A stretch of DNA of 64,000 nucleotides. Origin: an uncultured Gammaproteobacteria bacterium. Lineage in GTDB: Bacteria; Patescibacteriota; Patescibacteriia; Magasanikbacterales; GWA2-37-8. The position numbers were made by a program, and so were the translations under genes. Positions within the stretch are counted from its first letter, which is position 1. The number at the start of each line of letters is the position of its first letter. Shown in pieces: positions 14,104 through 14,949 of this stretch. Below the pieces are notes generated by a model that saw nothing but the letters and a program-made list of their open reading frames with translations, was not told the DNA's origin and did no database searches. The stretch is taken from contig CAYHBZ010000002.1 of the NCBI GenBank assembly GCA_964355175.1, forward strand, positions 268,537 through 332,536, given 5' to 3'.

Positions 14104-14271
14104 ATTCCTCAATGTCCGATTAATCAGAGACTAAGGATTTGGGACTTTTGGTGAGCAGTTGCCGGGGAGGCATAACTGTTTTTTCTCACGCGGGGTGTCC
14201 CGTTCACGATTTCTCGTGACCTTTGTAGCCAGTATCGTCGGCTACGGACGAAATCTTGGGCGACCGGCCTG

Positions 14272-14658
14272 TCAATCGCATTCGCCGCTGGAGCAACCCT
14301 CCGCACAGTGCTTGCGGAAAAGCGGCCGATCTTGCCCCTCGTTGCACACTGCGGTGTCTCCCTCGCACCAACATCCGATGATGTCGACGCTGACGGGTGG
14401 CTGGGGCGACTCCCACTTGGTTTCGCCCGATTCATGGGCGTAGTAGGGGTCCTCCTCCTCGGTCTCTGCCAGAGTGGGTGCCGTGGGGATGGGGGCAGAG
14501 CGGGCCAACAGCCTCCGTTCGACTTGGAGGCGTTCCTGCCGCTGATCCTCCTTCAGTTGGAACATGGCCTCAGGGCTGAGGGCCTGGTCGAGCCTGGCGG
14601 CTCCGTAGATCAGCCCAAACCCCACGACCAGCAGAAACGCGTACTTCACGAACTTCAT
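14272..14658 (-). CDS. secreted small Cys-rich protein (128 aa) encoded in a G+C-rich islet
   Basis: Strong SD AAGGAG 6 nt upstream of ATG. N-terminal signal/TM (MKFVKYAFLLVVGFGLIYGAA), acidic middle, C-terminal 7-Cys cluster (GCWCEGDTAVCNEGQ...HCAEGCSSGECD). GC-rich codons, stop TGA. Confidence 0.6.
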   Translation of the reverse strand: MKFVKYAFLLVVGFGLIYGAARLDQALSPEAMFQLKEDQRQERLQVERRLLARSAPIPTAPTLAETEEEDPYYAHESGETKWESPQPPVSVDIIGCWCEGDTAVCNEGQDRPLFRKHCAEGCSSGECD

Positions 14659-14949
14659 TTCGTCTCCTTTTACTCCGAAGAGCGCCCATTATTTCGACCA
14701 ACGCGGTCGACATTTGGGCGGTCGCCACCGTGAACGGTGTGCTATTCTATGCTCAGTTAAGCGCAAAATGGCACACCATTATAAAGAACTTTTAGCATTT
14801 TTTAATATAATTTTTAGCTTATTATAGCCAAAAATTTTAAGTTAATGCTCTCTTATCACTAACTTAACGGTGAAGTATAGCACAAAATTGGTGTTTTGTC
14901 AATGTGACTGCGGTCATGCCAAATTCAATTGCTGTATTCAAAAATAAGG

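Follow-up and report, generated by a model that had tools for sequence, protein, structure and literature searches.

The Islet and Its Setting

A short GC-rich (guanine plus cytosine) islet lies between the genes rpmE and rpsB in the DNA considered here, a stretch of 64,000 nucleotides (nt; hereafter the window) from the AT-rich chromosome of a member of Candidatus Magasanikbacteria, a lineage within the Candidate Phyla Radiation (CPR/Patescibacteria), as the relatives of its RpsB indicate. The islet carries a single minus-strand gene, an open reading frame (ORF) of 128 codons called ORF128, the product of which is referred to as P0001. On one side of it is rpmE (13668–13958, minus strand), with prfA beyond, and on the other is the rpsB-tsf pair, beginning at 15087 on the plus strand. 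We read the islet as a compositionally atypical single-gene insert, probably acquired by horizontal transfer, for an exported protein with six cysteines, and give this overall reading a probability of about 0.6. As an accessory gene islet it is ordinary in kind and clean in detail; its gene is an orphan, restricted to its lineage, and its product is probably exported.

The difference in composition is large. Scanned in 200-nt pieces, the window has a mean GC fraction of 0.404 (standard deviation 0.065), and the pieces within the islet reach 62–66%. A preliminary description of this DNA had placed a GC-rich islet at 14105–14740; the islet is there, with limits other than those given, as the GC-rich stretch runs from about 14140 to about 14760 (some 620 bases, GC 0.63 vs. 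0.40 for the window). The richness in GC is not limited to the ORF and includes the untranslated regions (UTRs). At third codon positions (GC3) the value for ORF128 is 0.78, compared with about 0.38 in ribosomal genes. Five contigs, drawn from assemblies in ENA, Logan and NCBI, encode the same protein with the same neighbours, and the locus L001 shows complete identity with the window across 3.5 kb (the L-numbered labels denote homologous loci compared from other assemblies and relatives). An assembly chimera is excluded because independent assemblies reproduce the identical locus.

The stop codon of ORF128 also sets it apart. Not one of the 34 confident native genes in the window stops with TGA (31 end in TAA and 3 in TAG), and ORF128 does. 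The lack of native TGA stops had raised the suspicion of a recoded genetic code, which was rejected: clade-wide, TGA is the stop of 7% of the long ORFs, with an enrichment among the GC-rich ones, and no native gene is interrupted by an in-frame TGA.

An Insert at a Variable Site

The boundaries of the insert can be read from relatives that do not have it. In L004 and L006 the −35 boxes of rpmE and rpsB stand back to back (AGTCAAT-AC(C)-TTGAC) in spacers of 208–234 nt, as compared to 1128 nt here, and the roughly 930 additional nucleotides sit exactly between these two divergent boxes. Empty sites are seen in L003, L004, L006, L007 and L012, and the spacers of the short-spacer relatives range from 190 to 300 nt. 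Among 47 relatives with both genes, about 22 have a spacer below 340 nt and about 25 have one of 600–3300 nt; the cargo found at this site elsewhere varies and is mostly GC-rich, with other ORFs in L019, L032 and L074/L075. Because relatives have either an empty site or different cargo there, the rpmE-rpsB spacer is a variable hotspot for accessory genes, and the islet is an insertion into it. No integrase, tRNA, direct repeats, terminal inverted repeats or end motifs shared among the islets were found (nothing of about 12 nt or longer was common to them).

Some of the other occupants of this spacer can be described. In L011 a GC-rich NUDIX hydrolase gene (5187–5753, minus strand; PF00293, E 8e-7) is found at the same rpmE-rpsB site, and L008 (5330–6000) holds a decayed, shorter relative of that cargo without an ORF; the terminator hairpins of the two are homologous and differ by compensatory changes. 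L005 (1–1160; RpsB 90% identity) carries, upstream of rpsB, an AT-rich reverse transcriptase of the diversity-generating retroelement type with a GNVTSQ motif, and no GC islet.

One sister genome, L083, which comes from another sample, shares the islet, and the flanks of the two copies can be aligned. Its RpsB and Tsf are 96.5% and 92% identical to those of the window. The synonymous divergence (dS) between the two genomes is 0.69 for ORF128, 0.49 for rpsB and 0.64 for tsf; because the islet matches rpsB and tsf in this respect, the ancestor shared by the two genomes already had it, and it has since passed down vertically. The next relatives beyond L083 do not have it. The L083 copy has suffered a deletion of 109 nt (3n+1) near its position 10040 (alignment columns 457–565), with ACGC microhomology at the ends, which takes away the hydrophobic N-terminus and puts the retained Shine-Dalgarno (SD) sequence and ATG out of frame; the gene call for P0005, the L083 homologue of P0001, begins at an upstream ATG without an SD. 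The gene has probably been inactivated in L083. Because the predicted signal peptide was lost there through a frameshifting deletion, we regard the gene as accessory and dispensable.

Coding Status and Selection

In DNA of 63% GC with shadow ORFs, the length of an ORF is uninformative. Such shadow ORFs had been pointed out on both strands, and they are present, with 141, 103, 94 and 70 codons. The minus-strand ORF of 128 codons with its own TGA stop, which the same description had singled out, is likewise found and starts with ATG; what makes it more than a chance ORF is its codon-position GC, its conservation and its ratio of nonsynonymous to synonymous rates (dN/dS). The GC of its three codon positions, 0.65/0.46/0.78, follows the usual pattern of a GC-rich gene, and the pattern of the plus-strand ORF of 141 codons is the mirror image. 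When 1.84 billion cluster representatives were searched exhaustively with phmmer, P0005 (107 residues, E 4.6e-26) came back as the sole homologue of P0001, and a word-indexed protein search returned the self-match only. The P0005 gene occupies the same site, divergent from rpsB-tsf and a giant Big_5 protein. The two proteins share a C-terminus of the form GCWCEGD.AVC.EGQ..PLFRK.C..GCS.GECD, in which all six cysteines are kept, so that the conservation of the cysteine pattern, on which the earlier proposal had staked itself, is seen in the one homologue available.

Compared codon by codon with L083, codons 95–128 have 13 synonymous changes at 20 sites and 10 nonsynonymous changes at 82 sites (dN/dS 0.09), and the linker codons 44–94 are near neutral, with a dN/dS of 0.70. 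In a six-frame control on the cysteine block, the ratio of nonsynonymous to synonymous proportions (pN/pS) was 0.19 in the annotated frame, 0.31 in the codon-aligned antisense frame and 0.87–3.7 in the others. The codon-position GC and this control both favour ORF128, and together they rule out coding on the opposite strand or in an alternative frame. We have very little doubt that ORF128 is a real protein-coding gene. It is worth pointing out that one part of the linker, DPYYAHESGETKWESPQPPVSV (codons 71–92, listed as window 14652–14719; alignment columns 652–719), has 13 nonsynonymous changes and 1 synonymous change against L083 (pN/pS 3.8); it may be under diversifying selection, in a sample that is too small for significance.

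The Protein

As a pre-protein, P0001 is small (14.3 kDa) and acidic. It begins with MKFVK followed by 16 uncharged residues (YAFLLVVGFGLIYGAA) with a mean hydropathy of about 1.5–1.8, a hydrophobic N-terminus of the signal-peptide or transmembrane type, as had been noticed before. Signal peptide and topology were assigned manually from hydropathy. Where a Sec type I signal would have a positive n-region, an h-region of 7–15 residues and small residues at −1 and −3, P0001 has MKFVK, the hydrophobic run of 16 and a possible cleavage between the last two residues of G-A-A-R; a signal anchor is equally possible. The acidic, Glu-rich spacer of the preliminary description also held up (11 Glu and 8 Pro in residues 23–94). 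Its C-terminal cluster of seven cysteines is there as a cluster, with the number corrected to six, at residues 96, 98, 105, 118, 122 and 127.

The AlphaFold2 (AF2) model gives the 34-residue cysteine domain short beta strands at a predicted local distance difference test score (pLDDT) of about 75–83, with 73.5 for the domain. No fold match was found for this domain, and P0001 had no match among Pfam, NCBIfam, PADLOC, PHROGs or PDB sequences; nor was the same domain found in further ORFs across the 922 kb of relatives' loci surveyed for islands, ORFs and promoters. From its sequence features, it is quite likely that P0001 is exported and has a disulfide-bonded C-terminal domain. The N-terminal hydrophobic segment would direct the protein to the Sec pathway and would be either cleaved or kept as an anchor; because the positive residues are on the N side of this segment, the C-terminus would face out. 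The helix and the Pro/Glu-rich stalk would then display the beta-rich mini-domain, probably held by three predicted disulfides, outside the cell. The cysteine domain would be the functional part, most likely a module for binding or surface interaction in an episymbiont. A role of the ORF128 product as a cell-surface or host-interaction module is a tentative and speculative suggestion.

Expression Signals and RNA Structure

The islet appears to be a full expression unit, with a sigma-70-type promoter, a structured leader of about 210 nt, an SD, the ORF, a structured 3′ UTR and a bidirectional terminator (Table 1). The AT-rich promoter region on the right and the bidirectional terminator hairpin on the left had both been described correctly; the SD had been given with the right sequence and a spacing of 6 nt, one more than is found. 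The terminator is called bidirectional because it is flanked by A- and T-runs. It is located inside the insert, is not present in the empty-site relatives, and is predicted to act toward rpsB, in the plus direction, besides ending the islet transcript.

Table 1. Coordinates of the features of the islet (window positions, unless a relative is named).
Feature	Position	Strand	Basis and remarks
Whole insert, relative to empty rpmE-rpsB spacers	14014–14949	−	Between the rpmE −35 box (AGTCAAGGG, ends ~14013) and the rpsB −35 box (CTTGACA, 14950)
Predicted sigma-70-type promoter TTGACAAAACACCAATTTTGTGCTATACT, extended −10; inverted repeat ACAAAA-N6-TTTTGT in spacer	14874–14902	−	TTGACA-17-TATACT with TG, 11/12 matches; kept in L083
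AT-rich 5′ leader with two hairpins, the first from ~+1 (GUUAAGUUAGUG...CAUUAACUUAA)	14781–14870	−	z −2.1; 68% identity with L083
48-nt hairpin where AT-rich passes into GC-rich sequence; best conserved of all elements at the locus	14733–14780	−	49/51 identical to L083
Shine-Dalgarno AAGGAG	14664–14669	−	5 nt before ATG
Coding sequence, 128 codons + TGA (P0001, orphan pre-protein)	14272–14658	−	ORF list, codon-position GC, one homologue, dN/dS
Predicted signal peptide or short N-terminal anchor, codons 1–21, MKFVK-YAFLLVVGFGLIYGAA	14596–14658	−	Hydropathy, model helix 3–25; absent in L083
Charged helix (29–53), then Pro/Glu-rich acidic linker, codons 22–94; conserved patch ETEEED..YAH..G..WE.PQP	14377–14595	−	dN/dS about 0.7, model
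Six-Cys domain, codons 95–128, GCWCEGDTAVCNEGQDRPLFRKHCAEGCSSGECD, C-x-C-x6-C-x12-C-x3-C-x4-C	14275–14376	−	dN/dS 0.09, pN/pS 0.19, AF2 model
GC-rich structured 3′ UTR with three hairpins; invariant 25-nt tail AAAAACAGTTATGCCTCCCCGGCAA	14104–14271	−	z −2.7; same hairpins in L083
Bidirectional intrinsic terminator, 14-bp perfect stem, 4-nt loop, A-run and T-run	14072–14103		Inverted repeat 14072–14085/14090–14103
Further promoter-class sites, in relatives	L032 4622, L033 10657, L034 3713, L079 1589, L047 8812, L023 4362, L043 821, L026 8461, L053 8544, L055 6395

The leader around the 48-nt hairpin is just 53–68% identical to that of L083. Within the hairpin itself the single stem change, from U-G to U-A, keeps the pairing, and the fold has a z score of −3.5 here and −6.9 in L083. 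It has no Rfam match, and a metagenome scan with it was also empty. Two of the hairpins in the 3′ UTR have compensatory changes in L083 (GUAGCCG/UGGCUAC to GUAGUCG/UGACUAC, and UCACGA/UCGUGA to UCGCGA/UCGCGA). We take these conserved UTR hairpins as putative stability or regulatory elements of a coding mRNA. The terminator hairpin appears in the minimum free energy fold; in Rfam scans of the whole islet, by gathering cutoffs and by E-value, no family matched, and the terminator gave weak hits by terminator-containing small RNA models.

Other Islets and a Shared Promoter Class

The islet has company. Five GC-rich islands (0.59–0.66 vs. 0.40) are found in the window, at 5051–5400, 14140–14760, 44801–46150, 57001–57950 and 59551–60100, each with one candidate ORF, in order of 76, 128, 418, 270 and 133 codons, the last for a double zinc-ribbon protein. 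The 922 kb of relatives contain 35 such islands, many with small signal-peptide or lipoprotein ORFs that are often Cys-rich. Proteins with a lipobox or signal peptide, 4–10 Cys and no Pfam match are encoded by islets in L071 (7849–8148), L072 (4805–5137), L026 (3052–3489), L055 (5663–6253) and L053 (~7776–8450), all on the minus strand; those of L071, L072, L055 and L053 are downstream of tsf, which makes this a second hotspot. The L026 ORF is upstream of rpsB, and a second island of L026 (7726–8350) comes after tsf.

The islet gene at 57142–57954 (minus strand) codes for a secreted, Cys-rich protein of 270 residues with a Stig1 match (PF04885, E 1e-13) and a score of 96.7 bits, against a cutoff of 100, for the MXAN_6577-like family NF041328; its named relatives, at no more than 45% identity, are in Labilithrix and other Myxococcales. 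This islet is located between pyrH and the rplJ leader and has the architecture of the ORF128 islet, with a long AT-rich leader and a hairpin of about 48 nt at the AT/GC boundary. Relatedness of P0001 to this Stig1-like protein was considered and dismissed: BLASTP was empty, hhalign gave a probability of 0.3%, and P0001 had no PF04885 or NF041328 hit at E ≤ 1.

The promoters of these two islets are very similar. The one at 58182–58210 (minus strand) is identical to that of ORF128 in 25 of 29 positions, spacer included (ACAAAA-N6-TTTT(G/A)T). The class can be written as TTGACAAAA-N5-(A/T)TTTT-N-TGCTATA(C/A)T, with the palindrome ACAAAA-N6-TTTTGT and predicted transcripts that start near GTTA with a 5′ stem-loop (Table 1 lists ten sites in relatives). 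A consensus built from these two promoters and that of L083 finds, with up to 3 mismatches, 20 further independent matches; in 8 of these a GC island follows at +60 to +460, compared to 2.6% of random positions (binomial P 2e-8) and 3 of 141 generic consensus promoters (Fisher P 2e-6). About half of the matches (~10/20) precede ORFs with a GC3 of 0.69–0.92 and unrelated products. These promoters may belong to a regulon made up of acquired genes, may move along with the cargo, or may represent the strongest type of promoter.

One could go further and see ORF128 as one cargo of an undescribed Magasanikbacteria system, in which GC-rich single genes, often for secreted, lipoprotein or Cys-rich products, would be captured at permissive sites beside ribosomal-protein operons, possibly from GC-rich host or neighbour bacteria via natural competence, and co-regulated from a dedicated promoter class with an operator-like palindrome (ACAAAA-N6-TTTTGT), forming a variable host-interaction surface. 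As it stands, we consider this picture rather doubtful.

A few other features of the window may be mentioned. The GC-rich gene at 44821–46077 (plus strand) codes for a protein of 418 residues like a "predicted amino acid dehydrogenase", and is just downstream of a MazF/PemK toxin gene (44354–44719, plus strand). Other accessory-type genes code for an AbiEii toxin (627–1292, plus strand) and a holin-superfamily-IV protein (54448–54855, plus strand). The rpsB gene has a structured 5′ leader at 14988–15058 (plus strand), TTTTAATCACTCATTCG.TCATTTTTTTCCTCCCCCGACCACTCGGTGGGTGAGA.CGAAGAGGCAATAAC, which is highly conserved across Magasanikbacteria (L003–L012, L005, L011, L083) without an Rfam hit; it is a candidate for an S2 autoregulatory leader.

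Origin of the Islet and Competing Readings

What one would look for in a horizontally acquired islet, a GC content and a GC3 far from those of the host genes together with empty sites in relatives, is what was found at this locus, and horizontal gene transfer, genomic islands and competence-based DNA uptake have been documented in Patescibacteria (PMC12455944). The composition of the islet DNA, with its TGA stop, somewhat favours a foreign origin. Composition is the sole basis of that claim, because neither a donor nor any homologue beyond the two sister genomes was found in the protein search or among metagenomes (JGI, IMG/VR viral contigs), plasmids and phages. Other points also count against our reading of an acquired gene for an exported protein. 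The 418-residue islet protein belongs to a family conserved across Magasanikbacteria and Patescibacteria (83–38% identity), which means that GC-richness here is not always a sign of recent transfer. The L083 copy, without the signal peptide and without a good SD for the frame of the cysteine domain, may be losing its function. Export was read by hand; the hydrophobic run, at 16 residues, is on the short side for anchoring stably, and one candidate cleavage site has a poor residue at −3. The AF2 models were built on two sequences only, with a pLDDT of 58 for the whole of P0001.

Several other readings of the locus have to be weighed against this. A native, lineage-specific and fast-evolving gene could have become GC-rich in situ, by GC-biased gene conversion at recombination hotspots or by selection on the mRNA, within a class that shares a promoter type. 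That the ACAAAA-N6-TTTTGT class precedes GC-rich ORFs of unrelated cargo in many relatives would fit this idea, as would the conserved family of the 418-residue protein, the persistence of high GC through a dS of ~0.5–0.7 and the lack of a donor in the collections searched. Yet the empty sites and the differing cargo at one site indicate insertions, the Stig1-like islet protein does have named relatives in Myxococcales, and a GC3 of 0.78–0.92, where the ribosomal genes of these genomes have ~0.38, is an excess far beyond the reported effects of GC-biased gene conversion; we hold a native origin to be unlikely. Foreign DNA with a formerly functional ORF that is now a neutral, decaying remnant is a reading suggested by the damage to the L083 copy, by the linker dN/dS of ~0.7 and by the presence of the gene in two genomes only. 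The window copy, however, is intact in its SD, start, stop, promoter and terminator, the cysteine domain has kept its dN/dS of 0.09 over a dS of ~0.7 or more, and the UTR hairpins have been conserved through compensatory changes, all of which make a remnant quite unlikely. Finally, a GC-rich island in an AT-rich intergenic region is a classic signature of non-coding RNA, and the conserved UTR hairpins and a z score of −11 for the fold of the whole 821-nt transcript could be taken as signs of a structured RNA, or of plus-strand coding, with ORF128 a GC-driven accident. The score of −11 is an artefact, because AT-rich and GC-rich parts are shuffled together, and the coding sequence by itself scores −0.9, like its shuffles; with no Rfam family and with codon-position GC and a synonymous excess specific to the annotated frame, such an accident is exceedingly improbable.

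The preliminary description had seen a bacteriocin-like or defensin-like architecture. On this account P0001 would be an antimicrobial peptide, either a Sec-dependent bacteriocin or a defensin-like one, from which leader and acidic propeptide are cut away to leave the 34-residue Cys-rich core as the toxin. The layout of hydrophobic leader, acidic spacer and compact Cys-rich C-terminus is compatible with this, the linker evolves fast, and, as is often the case for antagonism genes, this one varies between strains and can be dispensed with. The rest of the evidence gives the idea no support, and we find it very doubtful. The core is acidic, with a pI of ~4.5, and cationic peptides predominate among defensins and class II bacteriocins. 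The sequence has no double-glycine leader and no match to a bacteriocin, peptide-precursor or small secreted-protein family in Pfam, NCBIfam, PADLOC or PHROGs; no fold matched, and the model shows no helix for the cysteine-stabilised (CS) alpha/beta fold, in which a helix is stapled to a beta-sheet (CxxxC...CxC). The maturation and transport genes that had been suggested as companions were looked for within ±10 kb and in the 64-kb window, and none was found, be it an immunity gene, an ABC/C39 (ATP-binding cassette transporter/C39 peptidase) gene or a modification enzyme of ribosomally synthesized and post-translationally modified peptides (LanM/LanBC, radical S-adenosylmethionine, YcaO). The neighbours are rpmE, prfA, prmC, rpsB, tsf and the giant Big_5 surface protein, and the rest of the window is housekeeping (glycolysis, aminoacyl-tRNA synthetase, ScpAB, ribosomal genes).

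Significance

Genomes are tiny among members of the CPR, which are believed to live attached to other cells, and the few exported proteins that vary among them are prime candidates for recognising a host. The ORF128 locus offers a cleanly delimited example, with an orphan domain predicted to be of the disulfide type, strong purifying selection, mapped insert boundaries and a recurrent hotspot. The association of the promoter class with GC-rich islets may outweigh the single gene, as it suggests either that acquired genes form a regulon or that their capture is linked to the promoter.

Comparison with Known Systems

Class II bacteriocins and CS-alpha/beta defensins are, like P0001 as predicted, small exported peptides with a disulfide-stabilised C-terminal part. 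P0001 differs from them in being acidic, in having no immunity or transport partners and no helix in the model, and in showing no homology. The Stig1-like or MXAN_6577-like proteins (PF04885, NF041328) have in common with it, as predicted, a signal peptide, a low-complexity acidic linker and a disulfide-type Cys-rich module; P0001 has a single module of 34 residues, in contrast to the NCGxCGxxC repeats of the Stig1-like proteins. The Stig1-like sister islet also shares the GC-rich islet, the near-identical promoter and the divergent orientation from a ribosomal-protein operon.

At the level of the locus, the islets resemble integron cassettes as single promoter-proximal ORFs of unrelated functions at a common site, but have no attC-like shared repeat and no integrase in the window, and each islet has its own promoter and terminator. 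A leader pair GTTAAGT...GCTTAAC, considered as integron core sites, was judged to be chance, being in the wrong order and not found in other islets. With integration hotspots and genomic islands, including those of Patescibacteria (PMC12455944), the islets share atypical composition, presence/absence variation, varying cargo at one site and dispensability. They are set apart from these as single-gene islets of 0.4–1.3 kb without integrase, tRNA, direct repeats or shared ends, and their AT-rich promoter and leader resemble those of the host and belong to a shared class.

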